Below are positions 8,305 through 22,461 of a stretch of DNA of 24,000 nucleotides, in pieces. Positions within the stretch are counted from its first letter, which is position 1, and each line of letters begins with the position of its first letter. The translations under genes and the position numbers were made by a program. The stretch is from an uncultured Ruminococcus sp. Its GTDB lineage: Bacteria > Bacillota > Clostridia > Oscillospirales > Acutalibacteraceae. The notes below the pieces were generated by a model. The model was not told the DNA's origin. It searched no databases and saw only the letters and a program-made list of their open reading frames with translations. The DNA lies in contig CADBSD010000086.1 of assembly GCA_902797225.1 (NCBI GenBank), forward strand, positions 8,498-32,497, in the 5' to 3' direction.

Positions 8305-8336
8305 GTTGTTTATTACATTATTATGTTAATTATTAC
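8305..8336 (-). promoter_or_regulatory. Repeat site C: tandem direct-repeat operator (LytTR-type candidate)
   Basis: The minus strand reads GTAATAATTAAC-ATAATAAT-GTAATAAACAAC. These are two 12-mers 20 bp apart (8325-8336 and 8305-8316). The site is near-identical in layout to site B and site A. Confidence 0.55.
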
Positions 8337-8351
8337 ATCTTAACGCTGTTT

Positions 8352-8392
8352 TTTGCAAAAGAAAACCGACCGAGTGTTAGCTCGATCGGTTT
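8352..8392 (-). terminator. Rho-independent terminator, minus orientation, with no upstream CDS
   Basis: Minus-strand RNA: AAACCGAUCGAG-cuaaca-CUCGGUCGGUUU followed by UCUUUUG. The stem is 12 bp with one G-U pair. In plus orientation the same position is a C-A mismatch and the tail is not U-rich. Confidence 0.55.
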
Positions 8393-8447
8393 CCTTAACT
8401 GAAGTTTTGAAATATAGAAGATTATTCTGAAAACATCCTCATACTTC
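8356..8447 (-). ncRNA. Candidate ~90-nt small RNA (predicted promoter plus strong intrinsic terminator, no ORF)
   Basis: An extended -10 TGtTACAAT lies on the minus strand (plus 8454-8462), with the TSS predicted near 8447. The unit ends at the 12-bp-stem terminator at 8363-8392 plus a U tract. Only a 6-codon ORF without RBS lies inside. This rests purely on sequence logic. Confidence 0.3.
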
Positions 8448-8465
8448 GTATTTATTGTAACATAA

Positions 8466-8518
8466 TAAAAAGAAAAAATAAACGCTATTTTTATGTTACT
8501 TTTTACAATATAGCGTTT
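8466..8518 (-). terminator. Second minus-orientation terminator-like hairpin (weaker, large loop)
   Basis: AAACGCTAT (8480-8488) pairs with ATAGCGTTT (8510-8518), giving a 9-bp stem and a 21-nt loop. On the minus strand it is followed by AUUUUUUCUUUUU (plus 8466-8479). It overlaps degenerate repeat site D, so it may be a by-product of that site. Confidence 0.3.
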
Positions 8519-8526
8519 GTTATTAC
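8495..8526 (-). promoter_or_regulatory. Repeat site D: degenerate copy of the tandem 12-mer element, back-to-back with site A
   Basis: The minus strand reads GTAATAACAAAC-gctatatt-GTAAAAAGTAAC, again with 20-bp spacing. The first 12-mer is a good match. The spacer and second 12-mer are poorer. The junction with site A forms the perfect palindrome ATTACGTAAT (8522-8531). Confidence 0.3.
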
Positions 8527-8670: not shown

Positions 8671-9528
8671 GTGAATGAACTGACAGGTTTTATTATGAAC
8701 GGTATTTACAGAAAAAAAGCTATAAAAAACGCGTATTCGACAGAACAGCTTGACAAAGCTATTGTAATATCTTCCCCTCTTTCGTGGCTTGGGATAATCG
8801 GCGTTTTGGTGTTTATTACCGCGGTTATCACCTGGTCTGTTTTTACAACAATTCCGACGGTAGTTAACACAAAAGGAGTATACACCGAAAAGGCGGATTT
8901 ACTTGCAGTTAATTCAGATTGTTCGGGAATTATACAGAAATACTTTATTCATTCGGGCAGCATTGTCAAAAAAGGCGATGTTATCGCTGAAGTTAAAACA
9001 AACACGGGGGAACTAAGAAAGCTAAAATCAAGTTACGACGGTACAATCAGTAGTGTTTTACTAAATGATAATGATGTTGTATATTCTTCGGACGAGCTTA
9101 TCAGAATAACTCCCGAGGACATCCCCGAAAACTGCGTCGTATGTTATCTGCCTTTATCGCAAGCCGAATATATTAAAGAAGGAATGAGCGTTACGCTTTA
9201 CCCAAACCTTAATTATTCCGTTAACGACGCTCATCTGAACGGTGAAATCAAGTATATTGCAAAGTATCCCGCCGACGAGAAAAACACATCTTTAATTCTA
9301 GGCAAAAACAGCGGTCTAAAAAGAATGCTTCTGAAAGATGAGGCGGTTATTGAAGCCGTATGTAAGATAAATAACAAACACGATAAAGATAAATATATTA
9401 CCAATGACAATAAAAGAATTATACTAAAAAACAAATCCGTTCTCTCTTTAAGAATCGTTACCGAAAACACTCCGCCTATTAACAAGCTTTTTAGTTTTAG
9501 TGAAAACCGTGGTGGCGACAATGAGTAA
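8671..9528 (+). CDS. HlyD-family membrane-fusion/secretion adaptor of the NHLM (NHLP/Nif11) bacteriocin export system (TIGR03794-like)
   Basis: The N-terminus MNGIYRKKAIKNAYSTEQLDKAIVISSPLSWLGIIGVLVFITAVITWSVF matches the family pattern: F-R-K-x-A-l-x ... S-x-E-q-L-D, then a single TM helix. A lipoyl-like hairpin is present (GIIQKYFIHSGSIVKKGDVIAEV). The ORF opens at GTG 8671, but ATG 8695 (MNGIYRKK) is the more likely start. It is short (277-285 aa) for a HlyD protein and has little coiled coil. Confidence 0.85.
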   Translation: MNELTGFIMNGIYRKKAIKNAYSTEQLDKAIVISSPLSWLGIIGVLVFITAVITWSVFTTIPTVVNTKGVYTEKADLLAVNSDCSGIIQKYFIHSGSIVKKGDVIAEVKTNTGELRKLKSSYDGTISSVLLNDNDVVYSSDELIRITPEDIPENCVVCYLPLSQAEYIKEGMSVTLYPNLNYSVNDAHLNGEIKYIAKYPADEKNTSLILGKNSGLKRMLLKDEAVIEAVCKINNKHDKDKYITNDNKRIILKNKSVLSLRIVTENTPPINKLFSFSENRGGDNE

Positions 9529-11659
9529 CTACGTTAAGACGCCTGTCGTTTTTCAGAGCGAAGCTTGCGAGTGCGGAGCGGCTGCGCTGACTTGTGTGCT
9601 GTACTATTTTGGCAGATACACGCCTTTGGAAAAGGTACGCGAGGATATCGGAATATCAAGAGACGGATGCAGCGCTGGAAGTATAATGAGAACGGCGAAA
9701 AGCTACAACTTACACTGTCACGGATACCGAAAAGAAACAGAAGATTTAAAAACAATTAAAACACCCTGTATTCTGCATTGGAATCTCAACCATTTTGTGG
9801 TTTTTGAGGGCTTTAAAGGGAAATTCGCCTACATAAACGATCCCGCGCTCGGGAATCGAAAGCTTAGCTTTGAAGAACTTGACAACTCGTTCACGGGAAT
9901 AGTGCTGACCTTTTCCCCTAACGCGGAGTTTAAAAAAAGCAAAAAGCCTCATACATTCTTTAAATTCGCTAAAGAACAGCTTAATACAAATTCAGAAACT
10001 GTTGCAAAGCTGTTTATTATAAACGCGTACCTGGTATTCACGGGGTTAACCCTTCCATTGTTATCAAGAGTATTTATCGACGATGTTCTTGTAAGCAAGA
10101 GCTATGAAGTATTTTCTTGGATAGCGTTTATTATCATCTCCTGCATTATTTTGCAGTTTATTCTTAACATTTACCAAACGACTTTACTTGCAAAATTCAG
10201 AAAAAAGCTTGTACTTTTAACGAGCAAAAAATTTCTTACGCGCTTGTTTGATTTACCGCTTAATTTTTTTGAATACAGATTCGCGGGAGATTTAGCTCAG
10301 AGAGTAAAGAATATTCAAGCCGCCTGTTCTTTTGTTTCAGACGAAACGGCGAGTATATTTTTTGATATAATTATCGCGGTTTTTTATTTTATTGTAATGA
10401 TTATATACAGCCCTATTCTCAGCTTAGCGGCTCTTTTATGCGCGGCTGTAAATTTTATCATTATTAAAACATCGTCAAATTCGCTTTCGGAAAAATCAAT
10501 CAGATTACAAAAAGATACGGGAGTTTTATTAGGCGTATTGTATTCGGGAATTAATTCAATAAAAAATGTAAAAGCGTCGGGGATTGAGCCTGATCTAACC
10601 AAAAAAATCCTCGGATATAACGCTGAACTTCCTCAATCACGCCAAAAATTAGCTCGTACGCAAAACATAATTGACACTTTAACAGAATTCAACAAAAACC
10701 TTTTTGACGTTATCGTTTTAACCGCGGGAGGAATAATTGTAATAAACGGTAATATGAGTATAGGAACACTCGCTGCGTTCGGTATACTTTTAACCCTGTT
10801 TAATCAGCCGATAAGCAGACTTATTTCTGTTTTACAAAAAGTTCAAACGGTAAAATCAGATATTAACCGTACAGACGATATAATGAATTGTAAATCAACC
10901 GGCGATATTGATTTCCCTATAAAAAACGACTTTTTAAAAACAATCAACGGTAACGTCGAACTAAAAAACGTATCATTCGGCTATAGAAAAAACTCAAATG
11001 CTGTGGTATCTGATATAAGCATTGATATAGAATGCGGTTCAAGCGTCGCCATAGTAGGAAAATCGGGCTCAGGAAAATCCACAATCATTAATCTTATAAG
11101 CGGTCTTTATACGCCTTGGAACGGCGAGATTAAATATGACAACATAAACATTAAAGCGTTAAATAAAGAAACTAAGAGCGTTAATGTTTCGGTAGTAAGT
11201 CAGAGCGCTTCCCTATTTCCGTATACAATAAAAGAAAACATTAAAATGTTCAACGAAAGTATAAGCGAGGTGGATATGGTAAGGGCGGCGAAAGACGCGT
11301 GTATTCACGACGAAATACTTAATAAACGCGGGGGATACAATTACCCGCTAAGCGAAAACGGGTCAAACCTCTCGGGAGGTCAGCGCCAAAGACTAATGAT
11401 AGCACGCGCGCTCGCTTCTAATCCCGCTGTCCTTATTATGGACGAAGCGACAAGCTCAATTGACGCTGATACGGAAAAAGAAATACTAAAGAATATAAAA
11501 AGACGCGGTTGTACATTTATATCAGCGGCGCACAGACTAAGCGCTATTAAAAACTGCGATAGAATCATAGTAATCTCCAACGGTAAGATTGTTGGAGAAG
11601 GAACTCACAGCGAGCTTTACAAATCCAACGAGTATTATCAAAAACTTATCAAAAACTAA
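9500..11659 (+). CDS. C39-peptidase-domain ABC exporter (double-glycine leader-cleaving peptidase/permease/ATPase; TIGR03796-like)
   Basis: C39 motifs: oxyanion Gln and catalytic Cys in VVFQSEACECGAAALTCVL, His in HWNLNHFVVFEG, Asp in INDPA. Six-TM ABC exporter core. Walker A GKSGSGKST, signature LSGGQRQR, Walker B LIMDEATSSID, H-loop SAAHRLS. The probable true start is ATG 9521 (MSNYVKTPVVFQ), overlapping the upstream stop by 8 nt. The ORF-track start at 9500 is a GTG. Confidence 0.95.
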   Translation: MKTVVATMSNYVKTPVVFQSEACECGAAALTCVLYYFGRYTPLEKVREDIGISRDGCSAGSIMRTAKSYNLHCHGYRKETEDLKTIKTPCILHWNLNHFVVFEGFKGKFAYINDPALGNRKLSFEELDNSFTGIVLTFSPNAEFKKSKKPHTFFKFAKEQLNTNSETVAKLFIINAYLVFTGLTLPLLSRVFIDDVLVSKSYEVFSWIAFIIISCIILQFILNIYQTTLLAKFRKKLVLLTSKKFLTRLFDLPLNFFEYRFAGDLAQRVKNIQAACSFVSDETASIFFDIIIAVFYFIVMIIYSPILSLAALLCAAVNFIIIKTSSNSLSEKSIRLQKDTGVLLGVLYSGINSIKNVKASGIEPDLTKKILGYNAELPQSRQKLARTQNIIDTLTEFNKNLFDVIVLTAGGIIVINGNMSIGTLAAFGILLTLFNQPISRLISVLQKVQTVKSDINRTDDIMNCKSTGDIDFPIKNDFLKTINGNVELKNVSFGYRKNSNAVVSDISIDIECGSSVAIVGKSGSGKSTIINLISGLYTPWNGEIKYDNINIKALNKETKSVNVSVVSQSASLFPYTIKENIKMFNESISEVDMVRAAKDACIHDEILNKRGGYNYPLSENGSNLSGGQRQRLMIARALASNPAVLIMDEATSSIDADTEKEILKNIKRRGCTFISAAHRLSAIKNCDRIIVISNGKIVGEGTHSELYKSNEYYQKLIKN

Positions 11660-11670
11660 GAGCGGTATTT

Positions 11671-14241
11671 ATGGACAATAAAACTATACTTCTCGAAAGC
11701 GGGAAGAATTATATTAGTACAAATGAATATGACGCTTTCAGAGTTAAAAGCGGTACAGTTCTCGTTTATATCGTTCCTGTTAAAAACGGTAAATCAGGGA
11801 GGAAAAAGCTTATTTACGAGGCAATTGAGGGTGATGTTATCCCCTCTTATGTTTACAAAGACCTTGAGTATAATAGTTTCAGGTTTTGTTTTTCCGCTTT
11901 AGACTCAGCGCAATTAGATGTTATGAGCAACTGCTCAACCAATATATTACGGGAAAAATTCGCAAAAAAAATCGGCTTGGATATTTCGAGCGCCTCACAG
12001 TTTTACGAGGCTCTTGCCGAAAGCTACAGGATGTCCTCCGTTTTGGAGATGGGAGCGGTTAAACGCAAAGAGAATAATAATCAAAGCGTTAAAAAAGGAA
12101 TTATTTCTTCAATAATAAACGCATTTAAAAAGAACCGCAAATACTATACGATACCCAACACCGAAAATGAGCTATATAATGCCGCGGCTTTAATATGCAA
12201 ACAAGAAAACATACCTATAGCAAGTTATGAAGCGGTTAAGTCCTATACGGATAAAAACGTTAGAATTGACGATATAGCAAACAGCTCGGGTTTTGTATAC
12301 AGAGAAATATCGCTCAATAAAAACTGGTACAAAGAGAATATGGGTTCTTTTATCGCCTTTAATAAATCAGGAAAGCCTATAGCCTGTATTTCTAAATCCG
12401 CTAATTCTCACGTCTTTTATAACAAAGAGAATAATAAATTTCAAAAAGCGGATAAAAGCTTCGCCGAAACAATAGAAACAAAAGCATATATACTGTACCG
12501 TCCTTTACCGCCCGAAAGGCTTCAAAAAAGCGATTTAATAAAATTCTGTATAAAAAGCTTAAAGCAATCGGAATTAATCAGACTAATACTTTTATCTATG
12601 ATAATAGCGGTAATCGGACTTTCTCTTCCTGTTTTTTCACAGATTATTTACGATGATCTCATACCGCTTGAAATGAAAAACAATTTACTTAAAATTGGAT
12701 TTACTCTCGCGGTGTTCGCGATAGCAAGCGCGGCGCTGTCGCTTGTTAAAAGGTTTTCGCTTTTCACAACGACTTACAAAATCGCGCTTGATTTTCAAAA
12801 CGCTGTATTTCATAGGCTTATTAATCTGCCTCAAAGTTTTTTTGATAAAAATAATACGACAAAATGTGCTGTCGGAGCTTTTAACTCGGGAGCTTTAGCC
12901 GAAACAATATCGGGCGAAATAATATACTCAGTTATCTGTATTCTTTTTGCCGTTATTTATTTTATTTCGATGATAACCGTCTCCCCTGTTTTAAGCTTTA
13001 CCGCTGTTCCCGCTGTTATTGTTTACATACTGCTGTATTCAATTATTTCCAAAGCTTTTATAAATGAAGAAAAACAAATAGAAAAATACGAAACTCAAAA
13101 CAACTCAATAATATATCAATTTATTCTTTCAATTTCGGAAATAAAAAATTCCGAAGCAAAAGAAAAAGCTATTCTTAAATATTTAAAATCTTATATTACG
13201 GAAGCTAATCACAGAGAAAAAGCAAGCCGGATAAAAGGCGTATCCATAGCTGTTACACTTGCGTTCAACGGGTTGATTACTCTTTGTTTTTACACGGTAT
13301 GTACAGTGTTAAGGATTGATATAAGCGCGGGCTCTTTTATATCTTCTACGACGTTATTCGGCGTATTCTCGGCTTATGTCACACAGATTATAAACAGCAT
13401 AGTAAATATAAAGGCTCAAACACCTTATATGCAGCGCACAAAAATAATTCTGGACGAACTCCCCGAAAATGAAAACGATAAAATAATCCCGCATAATTTA
13501 AGCGGAGATATTTATATTAATAATCTTAGCTTCCGCTATTACGGTGAAAATGACAAAACGCTTAAGAACATAAGTATAAATATTAAAAGCGGTGAATATC
13601 TCGGCATAGCGGGAGCTTCGGGAAGCGGTAAATCTACTCTTATCAATCTTTTGCTCGGCTTTTACAGCGACTATAACGGCGAAATACGTTATGACGGTTA
13701 TAATATTAAAGAGTTGAACAAACAAAAACTTAGAAAAAATATGGGCATTGTTCTTCAAAACGATACACTTTTACCTGACACGATTCTCCGTAATATATCC
13801 GTGAATTCTCCCGAAGCTTCAATAAACGATGTGAATAAAATCACGGATGAACTGGGATTATCGGAAGATATTAAAAAAATGCCTATGGGATTATACACAT
13901 TACTTAACGAAAACTCTACCACAATTTCCGAAGGGCAAAAGCAAAGAATATTACTGTGCAAAGCATTATTATCTAATCCCAAAATAATAATACTTGATGA
14001 ATCCACATCTTCACTCGATAACGAATCTCAACAGCTTATTCTGAATGCCCTTAAAAAAAGAACAGCTACAAAAATTGTAGTCGCGCAAAGACTAAATACA
14101 CTTATTGACTGCGACCGAATAATCGTTATAAAAGACGGCGAAATAACGGAAACAGGACGCTATAAGGATTTAATTAATAATAAATCAGGCGAGTTTTATA
14201 AACTGGCACAAAATCAGATTGACGATATTGATGAAAGGTAA
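11671..14241 (+). CDS. Second NHLM-system ABC exporter permease/ATPase lacking the peptidase domain (TIGR03797-like), with ~300-aa N-terminal extension
   Basis: 856 aa. TM exporter core from about aa 300. Walker A GASGSGKST and Walker B IILDESTSSLD are canonical. The signature is ISEGQKQR (not LSGGQ) and the H-loop reads VVAQRLN (Gln where His is expected). The N-terminal part (FRVKSGTVLVYIVPVKNGKSGRKKLIYEAIEGDVIP) looks like a cNMP-binding-type beta-barrel by eye. An 11-nt gap separates it from the upstream gene. Confidence 0.92.
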   Translation: MDNKTILLESGKNYISTNEYDAFRVKSGTVLVYIVPVKNGKSGRKKLIYEAIEGDVIPSYVYKDLEYNSFRFCFSALDSAQLDVMSNCSTNILREKFAKKIGLDISSASQFYEALAESYRMSSVLEMGAVKRKENNNQSVKKGIISSIINAFKKNRKYYTIPNTENELYNAAALICKQENIPIASYEAVKSYTDKNVRIDDIANSSGFVYREISLNKNWYKENMGSFIAFNKSGKPIACISKSANSHVFYNKENNKFQKADKSFAETIETKAYILYRPLPPERLQKSDLIKFCIKSLKQSELIRLILLSMIIAVIGLSLPVFSQIIYDDLIPLEMKNNLLKIGFTLAVFAIASAALSLVKRFSLFTTTYKIALDFQNAVFHRLINLPQSFFDKNNTTKCAVGAFNSGALAETISGEIIYSVICILFAVIYFISMITVSPVLSFTAVPAVIVYILLYSIISKAFINEEKQIEKYETQNNSIIYQFILSISEIKNSEAKEKAILKYLKSYITEANHREKASRIKGVSIAVTLAFNGLITLCFYTVCTVLRIDISAGSFISSTTLFGVFSAYVTQIINSIVNIKAQTPYMQRTKIILDELPENENDKIIPHNLSGDIYINNLSFRYYGENDKTLKNISINIKSGEYLGIAGASGSGKSTLINLLLGFYSDYNGEIRYDGYNIKELNKQKLRKNMGIVLQNDTLLPDTILRNISVNSPEASINDVNKITDELGLSEDIKKMPMGLYTLLNENSTTISEGQKQRILLCKALLSNPKIIILDESTSSLDNESQQLILNALKKRTATKIVVAQRLNTLIDCDRIIVIKDGEITETGRYKDLINNKSGEFYKLAQNQIDDIDER

Positions 14242-14244
14242 GGA

Positions 14245-14562
14245 TTGTTTATGAGAAGTGATAATAAGCTTTTAGAATTAACGGGTAAGGTATTGTCGAA
14301 TAACGACAGCGCAGAGAAACTGACTAAAGTAAAATCTATATCGGATATTAAAAAAATATTCGAAAATAACGAAATCAAAATAACGTCCGAAGAAGTTGAG
14401 CGAATCGGCATTCTTCTGAATAACGATGAGCTAAACGAAGAAATGCTTGATACTGTAAACGGCGGCGGCGCTGTGGAGATGATTATTCTCGGCGGAGTTT
14501 TAGTCAGCTTAGCGGCAGTCGGCGCGTGCAGAGCGGCTTATTTGAGCATAAAAAAGGATTAA
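14245..14562 (+). CDS. Nif11-like leader, double-glycine precursor peptide (TIGR03798-like) with hydrophobic 31-aa core
   Basis: The likely start is ATG 14251 (AGGA RBS at 14241-14244, 6-nt spacer). The track start at 14245 is a TTG. The 72-aa leader MRSDNKLLELTGKVLSNNDSAEKLTKVKSISDIKKIFENNEIKITSEEVERIGILLNNDELNEEMLDTVNGG follows the Nif11 leader pattern, ending in (E/D)-L-x-E-E-x-L-x-x-V-x-G-G. The predicted core (nt 14467-14559) is GAVEMIILGGVLVSLAAVGACRAAYLSIKKD. The gene sits directly after its cognate three-gene exporter. Confidence 0.85.
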   Translation: MFMRSDNKLLELTGKVLSNNDSAEKLTKVKSISDIKKIFENNEIKITSEEVERIGILLNNDELNEEMLDTVNGGGAVEMIILGGVLVSLAAVGACRAAYLSIKKD

Positions 14563-14571
14563 TGTAAACTT

Positions 14572-14934
14572 ATGGAAAGAAATTACGAAAAAAACTCTCT
14601 TATAATCAGAGATAGCAACGGAGATTTTAAGCTAAGCATTTCAACAAAATACAATAATGATTCATCGCTGATTAAAGTATCGGGCGAGTTAAGTTCTGAT
14701 GTTTCTCACGATTTTGAGGATGAGCTTATGGCGGTTGTCACCGTACGCGATAATATAGATTTGGATTTATCTGATGTCACAAAAATATCGTCAGTCGCTT
14801 TAAGAGCGCTGTTATCAGCTCAACAGATTATTGACGAGAGAGATAACGCGTCGCTTAGAATACTAAATATGAGAAAAGAAGTTTTAGGCTTTTTTGAGGA
14901 AAAGGGCTTTGACGATCTTTTTATTATTGTCTGA
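14572..14934 (+). CDS. STAS-domain protein (SpoIIAA/RsbV-like anti-sigma-factor-antagonist fold)
   Basis: 120 aa. IKVSGELSSDVSHDFEDELMAVV...IDLDLSDVTKISSVALRALLSAQQII...LRILNMRKEVLGFFEEKGFDDLFII matches the STAS layout. Ser73 (nt 14788-14790) aligns by eye with the phosphorylated Ser of the SpoIIAA D-S-S-G motif. No RsbW/SpoIIAB-type kinase or sigma factor is nearby. Confidence 0.8.
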   Translation: MERNYEKNSLIIRDSNGDFKLSISTKYNNDSSLIKVSGELSSDVSHDFEDELMAVVTVRDNIDLDLSDVTKISSVALRALLSAQQIIDERDNASLRILNMRKEVLGFFEEKGFDDLFIIV

Positions 14935-14961
14935 CAAAAGATTTAACAGGAAAATATAAAA

Positions 14962-15846
14962 ATGAACCAATACAATCCATATAAAATATATGAAGGAAAT
15001 GAAAACTACATATTCTCAAGCTACTCACACAAGGACGAAGACAGAGTCATCAGGATATTAGAACAGCTCGCGAAACACGGATGCCGATTATGGTATGACA
15101 ACGGTATTAACGCGGGAAGCAACTGGCCCGAGGTTATCGCTGGACATCTGAATAATTGTAAGGTGTTTTTATCTTTTATTTCTAAAAACGCGGTTAATTC
15201 TCATAACTGCAGACGGGAAATAAACTTTGCCGTACTTAAGAAAAAAACTATTATAACCGTCTTTTTGGAAGATACGGTTTTATCCCCCGGTATGGAAATG
15301 CAGCTTTCAACTATGCAGTTTATAGAAAAGTACAAGCTCTCGGACGAGGAGTTTTACGAAAAACTTTTAGATAACAAAAAGATAAAAGAATGTATCGGAA
15401 AGCCTGATAAGAATATAAAAATTCCTAAAGGTATAAATCACGAGCCGCAAAAAAGCTATGATAACCTATGGCTTAGTAAAGAATACACAGGCGAAAAAGA
15501 TTTTTATTTTATAAAAAATACTGTTTTCTATTTAATACGAAAAAATACAGGCGAAAAGATAAGAATAAATCCCGAGGGATTTAACATAGGCAGAAAATCG
15601 GAATTTTGTGATTATACAATCAACGGCAACAAAACCATAAGCCGACTTCACGCCACAATGAAAATCAGAAATGAAAAATGTATTATTTATGACCACGATT
15701 CGCTTAACGGCGTATATGTAAACGGCGAGGCTATAACGCCGAATACCGAAACAGAGCTTATCGCTCACGATGAAATCAGGCTGGGAAGCGAAAAATTTAT
15801 ACTTGTTTCAGATGAAGAAGAAAGCATAGAAAACACGGAGGAATAG
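14962..15846 (+). CDS. TIR-domain / FHA-domain fusion protein
   Basis: N-terminal TIR_2-type domain (aa ~15-104): YIFSSYSHKDEDRVIRILEQLAKHGCRLWYDNGINAGSNWPEVIAGHLNNCKVFLSFISKNAVNSHNCRREINFAV. The glutamate at the usual catalytic position is E86, nt 15217-15219. C-terminal FHA domain (aa ~188-282): G210-R211, S227-R228-x-H230, N249-G250 (FNIGRKSEFCDYTINGNKTISRLHATM...DSLNGVYVNGEAI...IRLGSEKFILV). No TM helix or signal peptide. AGGAAA RBS. Confidence 0.88.
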   Translation: MNQYNPYKIYEGNENYIFSSYSHKDEDRVIRILEQLAKHGCRLWYDNGINAGSNWPEVIAGHLNNCKVFLSFISKNAVNSHNCRREINFAVLKKKTIITVFLEDTVLSPGMEMQLSTMQFIEKYKLSDEEFYEKLLDNKKIKECIGKPDKNIKIPKGINHEPQKSYDNLWLSKEYTGEKDFYFIKNTVFYLIRKNTGEKIRINPEGFNIGRKSEFCDYTINGNKTISRLHATMKIRNEKCIIYDHDSLNGVYVNGEAITPNTETELIAHDEIRLGSEKFILVSDEEESIENTEE

Positions 15847-15847
15847 A

Positions 15848-17782
15848 TTGGGTAGATTCTGTTTTAATTGTATGATGCCCGTAAACAAAGATAAATGCGG
15901 ACATTGCGGATATACACAATTTAATAAAACTCCAGCGCATCATTTACTCCCCTCCACCATACTTAACAACCGTTATTATATAGGCAACGCTATAGGACAG
16001 GGCGGTTTCGGAATTACATATATAGGACGAGATTTAAACCTTGATATGACAGTTGCGGTTAAGGAGTTTTTTCCTAACGGATACGCAAACCGCAACAATA
16101 ACGCTTCACCGGAAGTGGAAGTATCAGGGGCTAAAAACATAGAGTTTTTTAATTCTGGAAAAGAAAAATTTATACGCGAAGCAAAGCTTCTTGCAAAGTT
16201 CTCAGGCAACAAAAGCATTGTTTACGTAAGAGATTATTTTGAAGAAAATAATACCGGATATATTGTAATGGAATATGTAAGCGGTGAAACTCTTACAAAG
16301 CACATTAAAACTCAAGGAAGATTCAATCCAAATAATCTCCTGGATAAAATGCTTCCGCTGTTCAGCGCGCTCGGCAAAATCCACAAAAGCGGACTTATAC
16401 ACAGAGATATCAGTCCCGACAACATTATGCTGCTGAGCGACGGCACATTAAAGCTTATGGATTTCGGAGCGGCAAGGTATATTAATTTTCTCGACAATCA
16501 CACAATGTCGATTATGTTTAAACCCGGTTACGCTCCCGAGGAACAGTATCGTCAAAAAGGCTCCCAGGGCTCCTGGACGGATGTTTACGCGATTTGCGCG
16601 ACTATGTACAAGTGTATAACAGGAGAAACTCCCGATGATTCTATGGAACGAGCTTTTAAGGATAATTTTAAAAAGCCGTCATTATTGCGCCCTGATATTT
16701 CAAAAGAATACGAGGAAGTTCTTCTTAAGGGAATGGCGGTTTATAAAGAAAACAGATTCCAGACTATGGAGGAATTATCCGCGGCGTTTTTAAAAGCTAC
16801 GGGAAAACACTACTCTGATTTGTCAGAAAACAATTCACAAAACTCCTACTCCCCTATAGATTTCGAAAATGATAAAACAGAGTTTTATTCAGCGGACGAG
16901 GACGATGATACCGAATACTACGAAGAAACCATAAATAAACAATCCGATGAAGAAATAAGTAATTCAAAAGAATCTACATCAGAAAAGAGAATTAAAAAAA
17001 GCAGAAAAAAGCTTTACATAATACTAATCGTGATTATAATCACAGCTTTTATCGGATTCTATTATCAATATGAGAAATCCACATATGTAAAAACACCTAA
17101 TCTCGTAGGTTTAGAAAAAGCGAAAGCGGAAAACAAATTAAAAGCAAAAGAGCTTAAATTCATAGAAAAGCTTGACTATTCCGATACTGCTGAAAAGGGC
17201 GATGTTATTTCGCAAAGCCCTCAGAAATTCAGGCAGATTAAAAAGGGCTCAACCGTAGTATTAGTTATCAGCAACGGAAAGCTGGTTACGGTTTCCGATT
17301 ACAAAAATCTTTCTTTATCAAAAGCAAAAAAGCTCATATCAAATTCAGGGCTAAAGATAAAAGTTACGAAAAGAACGTTTTCGGAGAAGATTAATAAAAA
17401 TCATATTTTAACACAATCTCCTAAAGGCGGAACGGCTTTACCCGAGGGCAGTACTGTTTCAGTCGAAATAAGCAGGGGCAAAAGAAAATATAAAGTTCCT
17501 AACCTTATAGGAAAGAATTATAAATCCGCTTTAAAAGCGTTAAAAATCTTTAGAACAGAAATTGTATATGAATACAGCAGTGAAACGGAAAATACCGTTA
17601 TAAAACAATCTCCCGAAAAAAACACCAGGCTTACAAAAAATTCAAAAATTACCCTAACAGTAAGCAAAGGCCCCGCTCCGACTACACCTCCTGCTACAGC
17701 GACAGTTCCGCGGGTTCGTTACACCACACCAACGAAAAAGAATACACAAAAATCTTTCAGCGGTTTAAATATTGACTCATAA
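15848..17782 (+). CDS. Hanks-type Ser/Thr protein kinase with N-terminal zinc ribbon, one TM helix and three extracellular PASTA domains
   Basis: The TTG start sits 1 nt after the upstream stop, with GGAGG 6 nt upstream. Zn ribbon CFNC-x9-CGHC. Kinase motifs GQGGFG, VAVK (K72), HRDISPDN (D187), DFG (D205), GYAPEE. TM helix LYIILIVIIITAFIGFYYQY (aa ~389-407). Three PASTA repeats (VKTPNLVGLEKAKAENKL..., VTVSDYKNLSLSKAKKLI..., YKVPNLIGKNYKSALKAL...). Thr/Pro-rich tail. No PP2C phosphatase gene is adjacent. Confidence 0.93.
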   Translation: MGRFCFNCMMPVNKDKCGHCGYTQFNKTPAHHLLPSTILNNRYYIGNAIGQGGFGITYIGRDLNLDMTVAVKEFFPNGYANRNNNASPEVEVSGAKNIEFFNSGKEKFIREAKLLAKFSGNKSIVYVRDYFEENNTGYIVMEYVSGETLTKHIKTQGRFNPNNLLDKMLPLFSALGKIHKSGLIHRDISPDNIMLLSDGTLKLMDFGAARYINFLDNHTMSIMFKPGYAPEEQYRQKGSQGSWTDVYAICATMYKCITGETPDDSMERAFKDNFKKPSLLRPDISKEYEEVLLKGMAVYKENRFQTMEELSAAFLKATGKHYSDLSENNSQNSYSPIDFENDKTEFYSADEDDDTEYYEETINKQSDEEISNSKESTSEKRIKKSRKKLYIILIVIIITAFIGFYYQYEKSTYVKTPNLVGLEKAKAENKLKAKELKFIEKLDYSDTAEKGDVISQSPQKFRQIKKGSTVVLVISNGKLVTVSDYKNLSLSKAKKLISNSGLKIKVTKRTFSEKINKNHILTQSPKGGTALPEGSTVSVEISRGKRKYKVPNLIGKNYKSALKALKIFRTEIVYEYSSETENTVIKQSPEKNTRLTKNSKITLTVSKGPAPTTPPATATVPRVRYTTPTKKNTQKSFSGLNIDS

Positions 17783-17796
17783 AAAAGGAGTTTTAA

Positions 17797-20235
17797 ATGA
17801 AAAACTTAAAAAGAGTAATATGTATCTTTATTTGCACACTGATACTTTCATCACTTTTTACAATGAATTATTACGCGCTTGAACAGAACGAAACATACAG
17901 CGGTACTACAGGCGATTGCGCCTGGGAATATAATCCCGATACAACAACAATTACCATATCAGGCGCAGGCAATATGGCTGATTATACGGGAGCTGATTTA
18001 CCGCCTTGGAATTGTTTTAGAGAAGAAGTGAAAAATGTTATTATTAATAACGGAGTAAAAAGCCTTGGGGGATATTCCTTTTATATGTTTTCAGCTCTGG
18101 AAAACGTATCCTTTCCCGATACTTTGGAAGAGATACACTCGTCAGCTTTCAGAGCCTGTTCATCGCTTAAAGAACTAAATATTAATAACAAAGTCCATTT
18201 TATTGAATACGGAGCGTTTTCGGATTGCGATAATCTGGAATCCATTCATTTGCCTGTTAATTTATCTACTCTGCAAAACGGTGTGTTTTTCAATCTTCCA
18301 AAACTGAAATCCATCTATATTCCCTATAACGTCAACGCTCTTTATACTACTTTCAATAACTGTCCTTCGCTTACAACCGTACATTTATCCTCTAAAACAG
18401 CGCTTACAAACAACGAAAACCAAAAGGTTTTTATGAATTGTAATAATATAAGAGATGTATATTATTACGGTAAACTAACTGAGCTGAGAAAAGAACAGTT
18501 AGCAAATGAACCTGATTTCGCAAACGCGACATTTCATTACATCAATGATATACAATACGAGGATGAGGGTGACTCGGCAAGCGGTACAACAGGCGACTGC
18601 GTATGGGAATATGATTCAAAGACAAGAACGCTGACCATATCTGGAAACGGTCGAATGGAGGATTATGACGAACTGGAAACAAGACCATGGAATGACTATG
18701 AAATGAAAATAATAAAAGTAGTTTTCAAAGAAGGCGTTAAACATATCGGACGAAATTCATTCACATTCTTTTCAAATATAGAAAACGTCAGATTTTCAGA
18801 CAGTGTAGAAAGTATAGGAGAATACGCTTTCCAATCATGCTCGTCTTTGGAATATATTAAAATCACAGAAAATATTACACAAATTGACAACGGAGCGTTT
18901 ATGTGGTCGGGAATAAAAAAAGTTGACCTTCCTGATAACATAGAATTTTTTGGAAACTGGTTTGAAGGATGTTCCAATCTTAAAACCTTTAAGATACCAA
19001 ATAGTTTAAACTGCATTCCCTGTGATTCTTTTCAGTATTGCCGTGGTCTTAAAGCTATTTCTTTTGGCAATAACATAAAGAATATAGGTAATAACGCTTT
19101 TGGCAACTGCACCTCACTCACAGATATTTACTTTATGGGTACAGAGGAAGATTGGGATAATATCGAAATAGAGGAATCGGAAAACGAATACTTTTTAAAC
19201 TCAACTGTACATTTCAATGAGGAGATGCCTACTGAGTTTATTCCTATCGAAACAACATCAGCCGCACCTGAAACAGTAGAAAATACAACTAACGCTTCTG
19301 AAACAACTACTTCTCTTGAAACTACTACAGAATATATAACAGAACCTCCTGAAAGCACTGTACCTGAAACAACGTTTAATTTCGTAACCGATCCTTTAGA
19401 AACCACCGTTATCGAAACTACCGCGGAAATTGTTACCGAACCCGAGGAAACCACAATAGAGTTTATTCCCACAACCCCCACGACAACCACTGAAATCACC
19501 ACTTCACCTGTAATAAGCACTGAAGCACCGACAATTTTTACAGAACCGAACACCTCCTATGTTTCCAAGGAATTAACAACAGCTTTTGAGCAAACTACTT
19601 CGCCTGTAATAATCCCTACAGAAAGCTTTACAACGATAGTTCCTACGTTGCCGATTATAACCGAACCTGTTGAAACTAAACCGTATACCATCGCTCCAAA
19701 GAACAAAACGGTTAAAAAGAAAACACAAAGCATTATCGCGAAATCGTATTCGGCTGTACCAAAGAGCAAGCCGTTCACAATAAAAGCGAAAGCAAAAGGT
19801 AAGATTAGCTTTTCTACAAAATCAAAAAAAATAATTACGCTTACGAAAAACGGTAAGGTAACTGTCAAAGCTATAGGCATAGCATATATCAAGATTCATG
19901 CCGCGGGTAATAAGCTTTACAAATCCGCCGATAAAACAATTAAGGTAATTGTAAGGCCGCCACAGCTTAAACTGCTTTCTAAATCGGGTGGAACAAACAA
20001 GAAATACACGATTTATTTCAAGAAAATACCGAATGTTTCGGGGTATGAACTTCTCTATAAAGCAAAGGGTGAAAAGAAATATAAAAGAATTCTCGCAAAT
20101 AAAAACGACAATAAATTTGTCATTAAAAATCTTAAATATACAAAACATACAATAAAATCAAGAGCATATAAAAAAATATCAAAGATTAAATTATACGGCG
20201 CGTTTACTAAAGCGTCCTTTGGTCCGTCGGCATAA
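17797..20235 (+). CDS. Secreted BspA-type leucine-rich-repeat surface protein with Thr/Glu/Pro linker and Lys-rich Ig-like plus FN3-like C-terminal modules
   Basis: AAGGAG RBS, and a 14-nt gap after the kinase gene. Signal peptide MKNLKRVICIFICTLILSSLFTMNYYA. Two duplicated ~230-aa LRR modules each open with SGTTGDC[AV]WEY...T[IL]TISG.G.M.DY. Linker ETTSAAPETVENTTNASETTTSLETTTEY... (nt ~19240-19700). C-terminal KGKISFSTKSKKIITLTKNGKVTVKAIGIAYIKIHAAGN (Ig-like), then an FN3-like segment. No LPXTG motif. Confidence 0.9.
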   Translation: MKNLKRVICIFICTLILSSLFTMNYYALEQNETYSGTTGDCAWEYNPDTTTITISGAGNMADYTGADLPPWNCFREEVKNVIINNGVKSLGGYSFYMFSALENVSFPDTLEEIHSSAFRACSSLKELNINNKVHFIEYGAFSDCDNLESIHLPVNLSTLQNGVFFNLPKLKSIYIPYNVNALYTTFNNCPSLTTVHLSSKTALTNNENQKVFMNCNNIRDVYYYGKLTELRKEQLANEPDFANATFHYINDIQYEDEGDSASGTTGDCVWEYDSKTRTLTISGNGRMEDYDELETRPWNDYEMKIIKVVFKEGVKHIGRNSFTFFSNIENVRFSDSVESIGEYAFQSCSSLEYIKITENITQIDNGAFMWSGIKKVDLPDNIEFFGNWFEGCSNLKTFKIPNSLNCIPCDSFQYCRGLKAISFGNNIKNIGNNAFGNCTSLTDIYFMGTEEDWDNIEIEESENEYFLNSTVHFNEEMPTEFIPIETTSAAPETVENTTNASETTTSLETTTEYITEPPESTVPETTFNFVTDPLETTVIETTAEIVTEPEETTIEFIPTTPTTTTEITTSPVISTEAPTIFTEPNTSYVSKELTTAFEQTTSPVIIPTESFTTIVPTLPIITEPVETKPYTIAPKNKTVKKKTQSIIAKSYSAVPKSKPFTIKAKAKGKISFSTKSKKIITLTKNGKVTVKAIGIAYIKIHAAGNKLYKSADKTIKVIVRPPQLKLLSKSGGTNKKYTIYFKKIPNVSGYELLYKAKGEKKYKRILANKNDNKFVIKNLKYTKHTIKSRAYKKISKIKLYGAFTKASFGPSA

Positions 20236-20236
20236 G

Positions 20237-20271
20237 AAAATCTCGGAACAATTCAATGTTCCGAGATTTTT
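20237..20271. terminator. Bidirectional rho-independent terminator between convergent operons
   Basis: Perfect 14-bp stem AAAATCTCGGAACA (20237-20250) / TGTTCCGAGATTTT (20257-20270) with the 6-nt loop attcaa. A-run and T-run flanks give a U tail in both orientations. It starts 1 nt after the LRR gene stop and ends 9 nt before the histidine-kinase stop. Confidence 0.85.
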
Positions 20272-20279
20272 CTATTTAT

Positions 20280-21587
20280 CTATAAACCTGTACTTAAGGA
20301 AACGATAACCGAAAAATCATCTCCGTTTAACTCCGTCGCAACCTCTCCGTTATATTTTTCACTAATGTCCTTTAATATTTTTAGTCCGTTTCCTCTTCCT
20401 TTTTGTTTAGGTTTATTTTCTATCGGGTTGGTTTTATTAATTGTTTTAATGTATATAATTCCGTCGCTTTCCCGACACGAGATTATTAAACTCTTTTTAT
20501 CTCCGTGATAGTTTTCCAGAGCTTCAATACTGTTATCAATCAGATTAACGAAAACTCTGCACAAATCAATATCATCTATTCCGCAATTATCCCGCAAAAT
20601 TATATTGTATGTTACGGAAATATTATTTTCATACGCGGAAGTCAACTTATCGTAAATGATAAGATTTACGAGCTTGTTTTCACAAACCGCGGGAATCCTT
20701 GTTTTTTCCGTGGTTTCCTTAAGCTGTTTAGTAAGCTCTTTTGCTTCTTTACCGCTCGTTTCATTACCCTCAGCTACAAGCGCCTCAACAACCGAAATAA
20801 GATTATTTATATCATGTCTGAGCTTTACTGTATCATCAACACTTTTTTGAATCTTCGCGTAATACTTAGCTTGTATTCTGTTTTCGGCTAAAAGCACCTC
20901 ATTTTCGGCTTTAATTCTCTCAAGCTTACTGTTATTGCGTGTAAAAACAAATGACATTATATCAAGAAAAACAAAACCAGATAATGTAGCGGCTATTATA
21001 CTTAACTTAGAAATCAAAGCCATATTATTATTGCGTTCAAACAAGATTAGAAAAATAACCGAAAGAATAATTATCTGGGCGTAAATTATCGTAAGAAAGG
21101 CGGAGCTGTTTGTAAAAAGAGTATCACTCACTTTTTCAGAATTTGCTTTCAACCAAATGATTGTTATCACGGACATAATAAAAAGCATCATAAAAAAGTA
21201 AAACGCGCAAACATAATACTGTTTAAAATAATCTTCAACTTCTAAGCCCAGCGAAAAAACAGAATAAGTAATTAAATCCGTTATAAACCAAGAAAAAATC
21301 GCGAGAGCCGAAAAAACAAGTTTTCTTATAATATTATCTTTAAAACATATTATTACCCAAACGGCAAATAAATAAAACTCAACGAACTCAAGTATTTCGC
21401 TTTTAAAATCAAGACGCATATGAATGGTACTGAAAAACCAGACAGAAACCGATGAAACAATAATTATATACTTGTTACACCTCGGCTTTAACACCATAGT
21501 AGCAGCAGTCGCCATAAAAAGAAAGACAATTAACAGCAAAAAGCCCTCGTTTTTTACGCTTTGAGTATTTTGTAAAAAAGTATGCAT
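20280..21587 (-). CDS. AgrC-like (HPK10 family, GHKL) membrane sensor histidine kinase
   Basis: 435 aa. About six or seven N-terminal TM helices. H-box TVKLRHDINNLISVVEAL, N-box VFVNLIDNSIEAL, G-box KGRGNGLKILKDISEKY. It lies immediately downstream of a LytTR response regulator, the typical peptide-sensing pairing. Confidence 0.88.
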   Translation of the reverse strand: MHTFLQNTQSVKNEGFLLLIVFLFMATAATMVLKPRCNKYIIIVSSVSVWFFSTIHMRLDFKSEILEFVEFYLFAVWVIICFKDNIIRKLVFSALAIFSWFITDLITYSVFSLGLEVEDYFKQYYVCAFYFFMMLFIMSVITIIWLKANSEKVSDTLFTNSSAFLTIIYAQIIILSVIFLILFERNNNMALISKLSIIAATLSGFVFLDIMSFVFTRNNSKLERIKAENEVLLAENRIQAKYYAKIQKSVDDTVKLRHDINNLISVVEALVAEGNETSGKEAKELTKQLKETTEKTRIPAVCENKLVNLIIYDKLTSAYENNISVTYNIILRDNCGIDDIDLCRVFVNLIDNSIEALENYHGDKKSLIISCRESDGIIYIKTINKTNPIENKPKQKGRGNGLKILKDISEKYNGEVATELNGDDFSVIVSLSTGL

Positions 21588-21656: not shown

Positions 21657-22364
21657 TTACATGCCCAGACTCTGTGATTTTAATGTGAGGTATCTTGCTC
21701 TGGCGTTATCGCCGTACAAACGACTTACGGATATTTCCGTATTGTCAAAAAGAACAACTTTATCTTTGTCAAATTTTTTGATATGAGTATAATTAACCGC
21801 AAAGCTTTTATGACATCTTATAAAACCTATTTTCAATTTATCCAGAGCATCACTCATTTTTGAATATTCTTCAAAGAGTCCCGATTTAGTATGATAGATA
21901 ATTTTTCTTTTATCGCTTTCAATATACATAATATCGTTTAGCTTAAGAGAGTGGCTTTCTTTCCCGAGAGTAACGCTTATAGTTATATCCTTTTGTCCAC
22001 TTTCCGCGTTAAGCTTATCGGTATAATAGTAAAGCTTATTCATATTAATTGGTTTGGTAAGCAATCCATAGGGCGTAAAATCAATAAAAATATCCTGACA
22101 GTATTCGGGATAACCTGTTACAAATATAACAGGAATACTCGCGGATTCAGCAAGCATTCTTCTTATCTCGGAAATACCATTTCTATCACCGACACAAATA
22201 TCCATTAATATGCAATCAGGCACTCTTTTATAATCTATATATGTTTTTAATTTGTCAGGTTCACTAAAACAAACGACCTCGCATTTATTGCCATAACGCT
22301 TTTTTAGCGCGTCTGAAAACAAAGTATGTATTTGCGGGTTATCGTCACAAATCGCAACAAGCAT
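21657..22364 (-). CDS. LytTR-family (AgrA/ComE-like) response regulator
   Basis: 235 aa. Receiver domain with D7-D8, phospho-acceptor D55 (CILMD), T in FVTGY and K in LLTKP. C-terminal LytTR DNA-binding domain (LNDIMYIESDKRKIIYHTKSG...FIRCHKSFAVNYTHIKKF). GGAG RBS. Confidence 0.93.
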   Translation of the reverse strand: MLVAICDDNPQIHTLFSDALKKRYGNKCEVVCFSEPDKLKTYIDYKRVPDCILMDICVGDRNGISEIRRMLAESASIPVIFVTGYPEYCQDIFIDFTPYGLLTKPINMNKLYYYTDKLNAESGQKDITISVTLGKESHSLKLNDIMYIESDKRKIIYHTKSGLFEEYSKMSDALDKLKIGFIRCHKSFAVNYTHIKKFDKDKVVLFDNTEISVSRLYGDNARARYLTLKSQSLGM

Positions 22365-22429: not shown

Positions 22430-22461
22430 GTAATAAAAAACATAACAATGTAATAAAAAAC
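22430..22461 (+). promoter_or_regulatory. Repeat site B: perfect tandem direct repeat (LytTR-type candidate) next to the regulator's own promoter
   Basis: GTAATAAAAAAC-ATAACAAT-GTAATAAAAAAC. The two 12-mers are identical, at 22430-22441 and 22450-22461, with 20-bp periodicity. Confidence 0.6.

Follow-up and report, generated by a model that had tools for sequence, protein, structure and literature searches.

Precursors with Nif11-like leaders (TIGR03798; N11P, ProcA, LahA) are among the systems closest to the peptide gene considered here, which lies in a 24-kb stretch of contig CADBSD010000086.1 from an uncultured Ruminococcus sp. (assembly GCA_902797225.1). This whole stretch is called the window below. 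Nif11-type leaders usually serve maturases (PMC2887384). The Ruminococcus precursor shares with this family the helical, acidic leader of about 70 residues, its ELxEExLDxVxGG end and the adjacency to an HlyD / C39-ABC / ABC cassette (PMC2887384). It differs in its sub-cutoff family score, in a core that is not rich in Cys, Ser or Thr, and in that no LanM, cyclodehydratase or radical SAM gene lies nearby. The export cassette, known as the NHLP/Nif11 cassette, was described by Haft et al. (PMC2887384) and includes the cyanobacterial 'cyclic nucleotide-regulated ABC bacteriocin/lantibiotic exporters'. The window has the same three genes in the same order, with the same peptidase-inactive second ABC subunit (ABC2) bearing an N-terminal domain of regulatory type; in a homologue, this place is occupied by Pfam cNMP_binding. 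In contrast to the described cassette, all three proteins score below the equivalog level here, and the adaptor is about 145 residues shorter than its 421-position profile.

The class IIb/IIc bacteriocins (PF10439; TIGR03949) have the same kind of hydrophobic helix, which is rich in Gly and Ala, contains small-xxx-small motifs and has a cationic end. They also share the lack of modification enzymes, the C39-ABC exporter with an accessory protein, and the elements for regulation: an AgrC-like kinase, a LytTR regulator and direct repeats. Their leaders comprise 15-30 residues, whereas the leader here has 72; furthermore, a single peptide is encoded in the window, no immunity gene is present, and genes for STAS, TIR-FHA and Ser/Thr-kinase proteins lie inside the operon. 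Phospho-threonine-controlled secretion is known from the type VI system (PpkA/PppA/Fha1) and from the mycobacterial FHA-containing ABC exporter Rv1747 with PknF. As in these systems, a Hanks-type kinase and an FHA reader (joined by a PP2C phosphatase in relatives) accompany an export machine, and ABC2 homologues carry two fused FHA domains. Unlike in them, FHA is fused to TIR, STAS is always present and the cargo is a double-glycine peptide. The precursor is a divergent newcomer of a known class, and its genomic setting is a new variation on the double-glycine export locus.

The explanation preferred for the whole locus, with a probability of about 0.55, combines export of an unmodified membrane-active peptide with LytTR control and phospho-dependent gating. 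The C39 domain of the adjoining ABC exporter would cut the precursor after G72, and the two-ABC/HlyD-like complex would then release the 31-residue core GAVEMIILGGVLVSLAAVGACRAAYLSIKKD, as domain content and motif fit suggest. That a dedicated pump cuts the peptide at Gly-Gly and exports it is very likely. The core most likely receives no enzymatic modification and would form one helix that spans or inserts into a membrane, with small-xxx-small packing and a basic tail, presumably acting in the membrane like class IIb/IIc bacteriocins. The AgrC-like kinase and the LytTR regulator probably drive the whole 11.6-kb operon through common direct-repeat boxes. Class II bacteriocin and pheromone loci follow this regulatory logic, so the peptide may in addition act back on the locus as an inducer. 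The STAS, TIR-FHA and PASTA Ser/Thr-kinase proteins most likely gate or monitor export by phospho-dependent interactions, a step that is read from gene neighbourhoods and domain fusions only.

Precursor, leader and predicted cleavage site

The program-called open reading frame of the precursor begins with TTG at 14245. The ATG at 14251 is the likely start; an AAGGA ribosome-binding site stands 6 nt before it, and the resulting 103 residues equal the length that gene callers give for all orthologues. The product reads MRSDNKLL...ELNEEMLDTVNGG and then GAVEMIILGGVLVSLAAVGACRAAYLSIKKD. Public data contain seven protein clusters (at 90% identity) that are 60-100% identical to it. The ratio of non-synonymous to synonymous substitution rates (dN/dS, Nei-Gojobori) was 0.16-0.20 for the leader; for the core it was 0.04-0.23. 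Because orthologues exist and dN/dS stays below 0.25, the precursor is a real gene under purifying selection and not a chance reading frame. The original prediction, a model's note made from the sequence alone, had placed a precursor at 14245-14562 with a 72-residue leader ending in a double glycine and a 31-residue core; the frame is present, constrained and has orthologues, and the division matches exactly. Negative results on precursors and maturases refer here and below to the window or to the loci named. Searches with hidden Markov models (HMMs) in all six frames found no second precursor in the window, so that 14251-14562 is the sole one.

Between lineages, identity amounts to 77-97% in the core and 50-78% in the leader. 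The better conservation of the core fits a peptide with a fixed protein partner. It had been overlooked in the original prediction, as had the LytTR-type boxes and the conserved exporter/STAS/TIR-FHA/Ser-Thr kinase cassette discussed below.

The designation of the leader as Nif11, proposed earlier together with scoring against TIGR03798 as a check, holds in part. The model, whose cutoff is 32.3 bits, aligned to the leader end to end (6-68 of 68) and gave 14.4 bits (E 0.034). As the score falls below this cutoff, strict membership in the Nif11 family fails. A search of 1.84 billion representative proteins with a profile built from the seven orthologues gave 82 matches at E <= 1e-3, nearly all of about 100 residues; the matches P0017 and P0076 are repeat-driven false positives. 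In an alignment of 77 relatives, close orthologues included, TIGR03798 was matched by 65 at E <= 1e-3, and TIGR03949, the class IIb lactobin A/cerein 7B model, by 14. Comparison of the orthologue set with 71 remote relatives by hhalign gave a probability of 99.5% (E 3.8e-22). The broader family profile matched 9zn4 in the PDB ('Nif11 domain-containing protein', E 1.2e-7); the narrow subfamily profile had no Nif11 match among PDB sequences. Distant membership of the leader in the Nif11-leader superfamily is well supported by this profile-profile and transitive evidence.

The whole precursor was modelled by AlphaFold2 with the family alignment at a mean predicted local distance difference test score (pLDDT) of 77. 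The model has five short leader helices, a low-confidence hinge near the Gly-Gly and one long helix at residues 75-102, within the core. Foldseek of this model against the PDB returned nothing better than E = 2; the search is uninformative because the long core helix dominates the model.

The leader ends in ...EEMLDTVNGG (ELNEEMLDTVNGG). G71 and G72 are invariant in all 77 aligned sequences, and E60, L66 and V69 are nearly so. Relative to the cleavage site, V69, L66 and L61 occupy positions -4, -7 and -12, which dock into the protease groove in the crystal structure of the LahT C39 domain (PMC6363468). This fit, together with the adjoining C39-ABC exporter, bears out the earlier assignment of a C39-type double-glycine site. 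The ambiguity that had been attached to NGGG is resolved by the relatives, in which the third Gly is replaced by Ala, Met or Val, in favour of a cut after G72. The internal LGG, also named earlier as ambiguous, lies within the hydrophobic core with no leader consensus around it. This is the supported reading of the site, and it predicts a 31-mer of 3087.72 Da (monoisotopic).

The GG, hydrophobic helix and KK also bear a superficial tripartite likeness to sorting signals such as GlyGly-CTERM or LPXTG, in which case the Nif11-like domain would be the cargo. The GG is set within a full C39-type recognition helix, a C39 exporter adjoins, and the putative signal would be the more conserved part of the protein. 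The precursor has no N-terminal signal peptide, its N-terminus lacks a hydrophobic segment, and no sortase, rhombosortase or exosortase was found in the window. With neither a signal peptide nor a sorting enzyme, the sorting-signal explanation was rejected as scarcely credible.

The core peptide and the adjoining exporter

The core GAVEMIILGGVLVSLAAVGACRAAYLSIKKD is a hydrophobic, helical stretch that contains small-xxx-small motifs and a single Cys and has a basic tail. Its composition is that stated in the original prediction (no Thr, two Ser, one Cys). The Kyte-Doolittle maximum is 2.4 in a 17-residue window, and the tail has a net positive charge. PF10439, the family of class II bacteriocins with a double-glycine leader, aligned to residues 57-93 with 25.2 bits against a gathering threshold of 27.1. 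TIGR03949 matched weakly (13.2 vs 21.5 bits), and the leader signature TIGR01847 reached 14.0 vs 15.7 bits. All three are near misses, and the first two agree with the likeness to class II bacteriocin helices noted earlier. The core with the leader end had a single match in the PDB, a transmembrane helix of MrpG, which was not significant. A membrane-helix-like core was present in 53 of the 77 relatives, 52 of which also have the basic tail, and a single Cys near the end often recurs. The view that such a core is atypical for a Nif11 leader thus did not hold for this branch; the peptide type is common in gut Clostridia.

No maturase domain was found in any reading frame of the window, in agreement with the original prediction, nor in the orthologous or related loci L001, L009, L011, L013 and L016. 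Radical SAM/SPASM genes occur elsewhere amid several Nif11-like precursors with hydrophobic cores (L040:4131-5186 and L096:1886-2902), which implies that some members of this precursor class are probably modified. The Ruminococcus peptide could be a true ribosomally made and post-translationally modified peptide, altered by an enzyme encoded elsewhere, for example a radical SAM/SPASM protein cross-linking the single Cys. Such an origin would accord with the genes at L040 and L096, with the recurrence of the Cys near the basic tail and with the usual role of Nif11-type leaders. It is quite improbable, given that neither the 24 kb nor the five other loci encode a maturase and that the core offers no Thr and just two Ser. 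The peptide is best read as unmodified, class-II-like and membrane-active.

The three genes upstream of the precursor have TIGR03794, TIGR03796 and TIGR03797 as their best matches, all below the equivalog cutoffs. The HlyD-like protein scores 95.5 bits with TIGR03794 (cutoff 156.2) and contains HlyD_3 and Biotin_lipoyl domains and one N-terminal transmembrane segment. Its orthologues comprise 271-285 residues. It matches mainly the two ends of the profile; an adaptor this short would fit a bacterium without an outer membrane. The first ABC subunit (ABC1) matches TIGR03796 end to end with 811.6 bits (cutoff 853.3). Its Peptidase_C39 domain is matched over the full length (E 3e-33), and the sequence motifs Q..CG, HFVV and DP are present.

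ABC2 scores 587.2 bits with TIGR03797 over residues 166-850 (cutoff 709.4). Its additional N-terminal residues, about 165 in number, have no Pfam match and no signature of cyclic nucleotide monophosphate (cNMP) binding at the sequence level. AlphaFold2 modelling of residues 1-300 (3-sequence alignment, mean pLDDT 65) gave an N-terminal beta-barrel. In a Foldseek search, this model matched the cyclic-nucleotide-binding domains of CRP, FNR and PKA-R (prob 1.0, E about 1e-4); the barrel occupies residues 1-100, or 11671-11970 of the window. In this model of modest confidence, the ABC2 N-terminus resembles the CRP/cNMP-binding fold. When the peptidase domain of ABC1 was compared with residues 154-310 of ABC2 by BLASTP, GAAALTC aligned with NAAALIC at the position of the catalytic Cys and nothing else was found. 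Because this match is not significant, a degenerate C39-like domain in ABC2, loosely supported by the alpha/beta pattern of the AlphaFold2 model, is just a suggestion. Homologues of ABC2 have either Pfam cNMP_binding or two FHA domains at the equivalent N-terminal place, and exporters of this class seem in general to have a regulatory module at the N-terminus.

An NHLP-type ABC2 with two fused N-terminal FHA domains is encoded at L097:10001-13744 (GCA_973470565.1). This unrelated, GC-rich locus is flanked by genes for STAS, FHA, cNMP+FHA, FHA-GAF-PP2C/SpoIIE and HATPase_c_2 proteins and by an NHLP/LanM lanthipeptide cluster. It is an independent link of the exporter class to phospho-signalling. 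The features of the window are collected in Table 1.

Table 1. Features of the precursor locus, with positions counted from the first nucleotide of the window
Feature	Position	Strand	Description
LytTR-type box	8310-8336	+	TTATTAC-N13-TTATTAC, 20-bp period; separates the exporter operon from the divergent gene of the surface protein
LytTR-type box	8500-8526	+	1 mismatch; about 170 bp 5' of the HlyD-like gene
HlyD-like accessory/adaptor protein	8695-9528	+	277 aa from ATG 8695; program-called start GTG 8671
C39 peptidase/permease/ATPase exporter subunit (ABC1)	9500-11659	+	PCAT-type; likely start ATG 9521
Second ABC subunit (ABC2)	11671-14241	+	no active peptidase
Precursor open reading frame	14251-14562	+	103 aa, 72-aa leader and 31-aa core
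Precursor leader, M1-G72	14251-14466	+	distant Nif11-like helical domain; double-glycine site G71-G72 at its end
Precursor core, G73-D103	14467-14559, stop to 14562	+	31 aa, GAVEMIILGGVLVSLAAVGACRAAYLSIKKD
STAS-domain protein	14572-14934	+	anti-sigma-antagonist fold; STAS_2, STAS; 9 nt after the precursor
TIR and FHA protein	14962-15846	+	TIR_2 E 2e-20, FHA E 3e-14; soluble, no transmembrane segment
Hanks-type Ser/Thr kinase	15848-17782	+	N-terminal Cys-rich motif, Pkinase, one transmembrane segment, extracellular PASTA x3
BspA-type LRR_5 protein, secreted	17797-20235	+	LRR_5 E 8e-58; signal-peptide-like N-terminus; last operon gene
Terminator-like hairpin	20236-20271	+	strong, 15-bp stem; closes the operon, faces the convergent kinase gene
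AgrC/ComD-like histidine kinase	20280-21587	-	multi-transmembrane N-terminus, GHKL HATPase_c_5
LytTR-family response regulator	21657-22364	-	Response_reg and LytTR
LytTR-type box	22430-22456	-	5' of the regulator/kinase operon; nearly identical to 8310-8336, spacer included

Probable transcriptional control of the operon

The genes from 8695 to 20235 are spaced by 1-27 nt and form an operon of 11.6 kb, from the HlyD-like gene to that of the leucine-rich repeat (LRR) protein. Apart from the hairpin at its end, generic scans for promoters and terminators stayed at chance level, and Rfam found nothing in the window. In the histidine kinase on the opposite strand, hydrophobic segments and the H-box LRHDINN were read from the sequence. 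The direct repeat TTATTAC-N13-TTATTAC occurs 3 times in the window against an expectation of 0.02. Boxes stand at equivalent places in the orthologous loci L001-L003, L009, L011, L018 and L024, and related cassettes without the kinase/LytTR pair are also without boxes. This box architecture is that of class II bacteriocin and competence regulons, and it suggests control of the pheromone type.

Such an architecture makes a pheromone role a serious rival to, or an additional function beside, action on membranes. The peptide might be mainly an autoinducer and not serve for killing: once exported and cleaved, it would be sensed by the AgrC-like kinase, and the kinase would activate the LytTR regulator, which would raise expression of the exporter/precursor operon and of its own operon in a positive feedback. 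The peptide is the sole one of double-glycine type at the locus, the kinase belongs to the peptide-sensing, multi-transmembrane HATPase_c_5 type with a regulator of the LytTR family, and common, conserved boxes lie 5' of both operons. The strongly conserved core and the absence of an immunity gene would fit as well. However, the core is a near-continuous hydrophobic helix, whereas the pheromones known from this class have shorter, amphipathic sequences and dissolve in water. The precursor also lies outside the kinase/regulator operon, in the exporter operon 5.7 kb away and on the opposite strand. More distant cassettes have precursors with neither the kinase/LytTR pair nor the boxes, and several divergent precursors may occur in one related locus. 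A mainly pheromonal function is possible but unlikely, and the membrane-active peptide with optional feedback is preferred.

Several further features surround the boxes. The intergenic region contains, at 8355-8395, an inverted repeat rich in GC (AAACCGACCGAG...CTCGATCGGTTT), which is followed by a T-rich run on the minus strand. The intergenic region of the window is about 150 bp longer than in orthologous loci. Divergent from the exporter operon and beside a LytTR-type box, a surface protein of 2349 residues with LRR_5 repeats is encoded at 1184-8233 (minus strand). It has a Thr/Pro-rich linker and a Lys-rich C-terminal module in common with the 812-residue LRR protein of the operon. The divergent gene varies among orthologous loci, where it encodes X25_BaPul_like proteins or a 401-residue protein.

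The STAS, TIR and kinase cassette

The gene that follows the precursor encodes a soluble STAS protein; in the family alignment, its EDE motif is invariant and the I-S-S site is mostly conserved. The TIR-FHA protein has a putative catalytic Glu (E86), which 5 of 6 sequences retain; its FHA residues GR/SR.H/NG do not vary. The Hanks-type kinase scores 348 bits with NF033483 (cutoff 450) and has its transmembrane segment at residues 389-407. A zinc-ribbon-like CxxC...CxxC motif (CFNCMMPVNKDKCGHCG) precedes its kinase domain (window 15848-15930). An assignment of this protein as a lanthipeptide synthetase was rejected: LanL/LanKC matches are confined to the kinase domain, lyase and cyclase are missing, and the protein has a membrane anchor and PASTA repeats. 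The LRR_5 gene is retained in orthologous loci.

The arrangement is retained in an orthologue of 60% identity although the flanks beyond the block differ. It is also kept around the nearest of the remote homologues, a precursor of 47% identity (P0008, core ...AVGACRAAYLRVEKE) and one of 35% identity (P0010, core ...VCVCRRAYLKLKKR). The P0010 locus additionally has four small reading frames for products of 104, 101, 102 and 61 residues, a PP2C phosphatase and a sigma factor of the extracytoplasmic function type; the 61-residue product is of the 'double-alanine' type described below. A scan of one genome per species with the TIR-FHA family gave 77 loci. A STAS gene lies just 5' of the TIR gene in 23 of them. 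The C39-ABC/ABC2 pair is found within the flanks of 18 of these 23; among the 54 TIR loci that lack STAS, 2 have it (Fisher p = 3e-11, the genomes being of different species and not phylogenetically independent). Four of the five STAS-TIR loci without the pair are on short contigs. The combination of exporter, precursor, STAS, TIR (with FHA or LRR) and Hanks kinase is found in at least 18 Clostridia genomes at the species level.

Across this cassette family, the precursors are often present in 2-5 copies per locus and their cores are highly variable, in contrast to the conserved STAS, TIR and kinase proteins. Related loci encode 2-5 paralogous precursors whose cores differ strongly, a bacteriocin-like diversification. 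The TIR protein is either an FHA fusion or a single-pass membrane protein with extracellular LRR_5, LRR_4 or RCC1-like repeats, and the kinases carry PASTA, LRR, Flg_new or TPR modules. PADLOC recognized no known defence system in the window; it gave weak ThsB-like TIR matches (E about 1e-6) without partner genes and no matches for the STAS, precursor, LRR and two-component genes. NCBIfam has no model for the exporter/precursor/STAS/TIR/kinase set, and full-text literature searches found no description of it. The cassette is apparently undescribed.

Some observations were made on its members in other genomes. TIR-transmembrane-repeat proteins adjacent to STAS are encoded at L027:9983-12619, L028:9980-12328, L037:9983-12670 and L042:9909-12626. 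Their N-terminal TIR, one transmembrane segment and C-terminal repeats constitute a Toll-like-receptor-like layout. LRR receptor kinases are encoded at L026:8705-11938 and L047:15447-17831. Directly 5' of the STAS gene, many loci encode 'double-alanine' proteins of 43-77 residues with the motif ELSxxELDxVxAA, in which an invariant AA replaces GG, and with a short hydrophilic tail containing D[FY]xxF. Examples are L016:8096-8281, L020:9344-9568, L027:9332-9508, L034:9341-9523, L042:9328-9516 and L047:13748-13960, with about 10 more loci. These proteins may be a second substrate of the exporter, or an uncleavable decoy or regulator; an HMM search found none in the window. A protein of about 157 residues with several transmembrane segments is encoded between ABC2 and the double-alanine peptide at L031:7989-8588, L034:8668-9138, L035:8651-9124 and L037:8808-9281. 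This candidate immunity protein lacks a Pfam match and does not occur in the window.

The conserved neighbourhood also allows the peptide to be regarded as a component or ligand of the STAS/TIR-FHA/Ser-Thr-kinase module. The processed helix would stay in the membrane or re-enter it, where the kinase or a TIR receptor would recognize it or sense the perturbed envelope, with a role in kin recognition, damage sensing or controlled cell death. This would agree with the linkage of exporter and precursors to STAS, TIR and kinase in at least 18 species, with the sensor-like extracellular parts of the relatives (single-pass TIR proteins with LRR/RCC1 repeats, kinases with LRR, Flg_new or PASTA) and with the motif C-R-x-A-Y-L, which is retained in the core even at 35% overall identity. 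The variability of the cores across the family beside conserved STAS, TIR and kinase proteins argues against sequence-specific recognition, and a ligand role is improbable.

A broader proposal is more tentative than the explanation preferred here and concerns the cassette as such. Exporter, hydrophobic double-glycine peptides, STAS, TIR and receptor-type kinase, joined in many lineages by the PP2C phosphatase and the 'double-alanine' leader-like peptide, could conceivably make up one undescribed peptide-based system of surface signalling or conflict in gut and rumen Clostridia. An extracellular sensor would then control export through phospho-threonine/FHA docking, and a nucleotide made by TIR might be read by the CRP-like domain of ABC2. 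Alternatively, the effect of the peptide on the envelope would trigger TIR activity.

A number of observations weigh against the combination of an exported, unmodified, membrane-active peptide with LytTR control and phospho-gating. Class IIb bacteriocins need two peptides, whereas one is encoded here. No small membrane protein resembling an immunity protein adjoins the precursor, the next gene being that of the soluble STAS protein. Conservation of the core above the leader is the reverse of the pattern usual in bacteriocins and in modified peptides. The leader stays under the curated TIGR03798 cutoff and the core under those of PF10439 and TIGR03949. The radical SAM/SPASM genes beside some relatives (L040, L096) make an unlinked maturase acting on the single Cys conceivable. 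Finally, the exporter operon is farther from the box at 8310-8336 than the divergent surface-protein gene is. With a single peptide, an unusually conserved core and no immunity gene, the explanations as a pheromone or as a signalling ligand stay alive.

By itself, the peptide adds one more member to a large and little-studied class, in which long Nif11-like leaders are combined with membrane-helix-like cores that are unmodified. Such peptides abound in gut and rumen Clostridia, and the searchable bacteriocin literature largely lacks them. Bacterial TIR domains have so far been known mainly from anti-phage defence. The cassette would tie TIR domains, FHA/Hanks-kinase signalling and STAS partner switching to the control of peptide export or to peptide sensing, and its single-pass TIR proteins with extracellular leucine-rich repeats bring a Toll-like-receptor-like layout to bacteria. 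Hypotheses are thereby opened on how producers may gate a self-toxic hydrophobic peptide and on the role that the regulatory N-terminal domains of NHLP-type exporters have.

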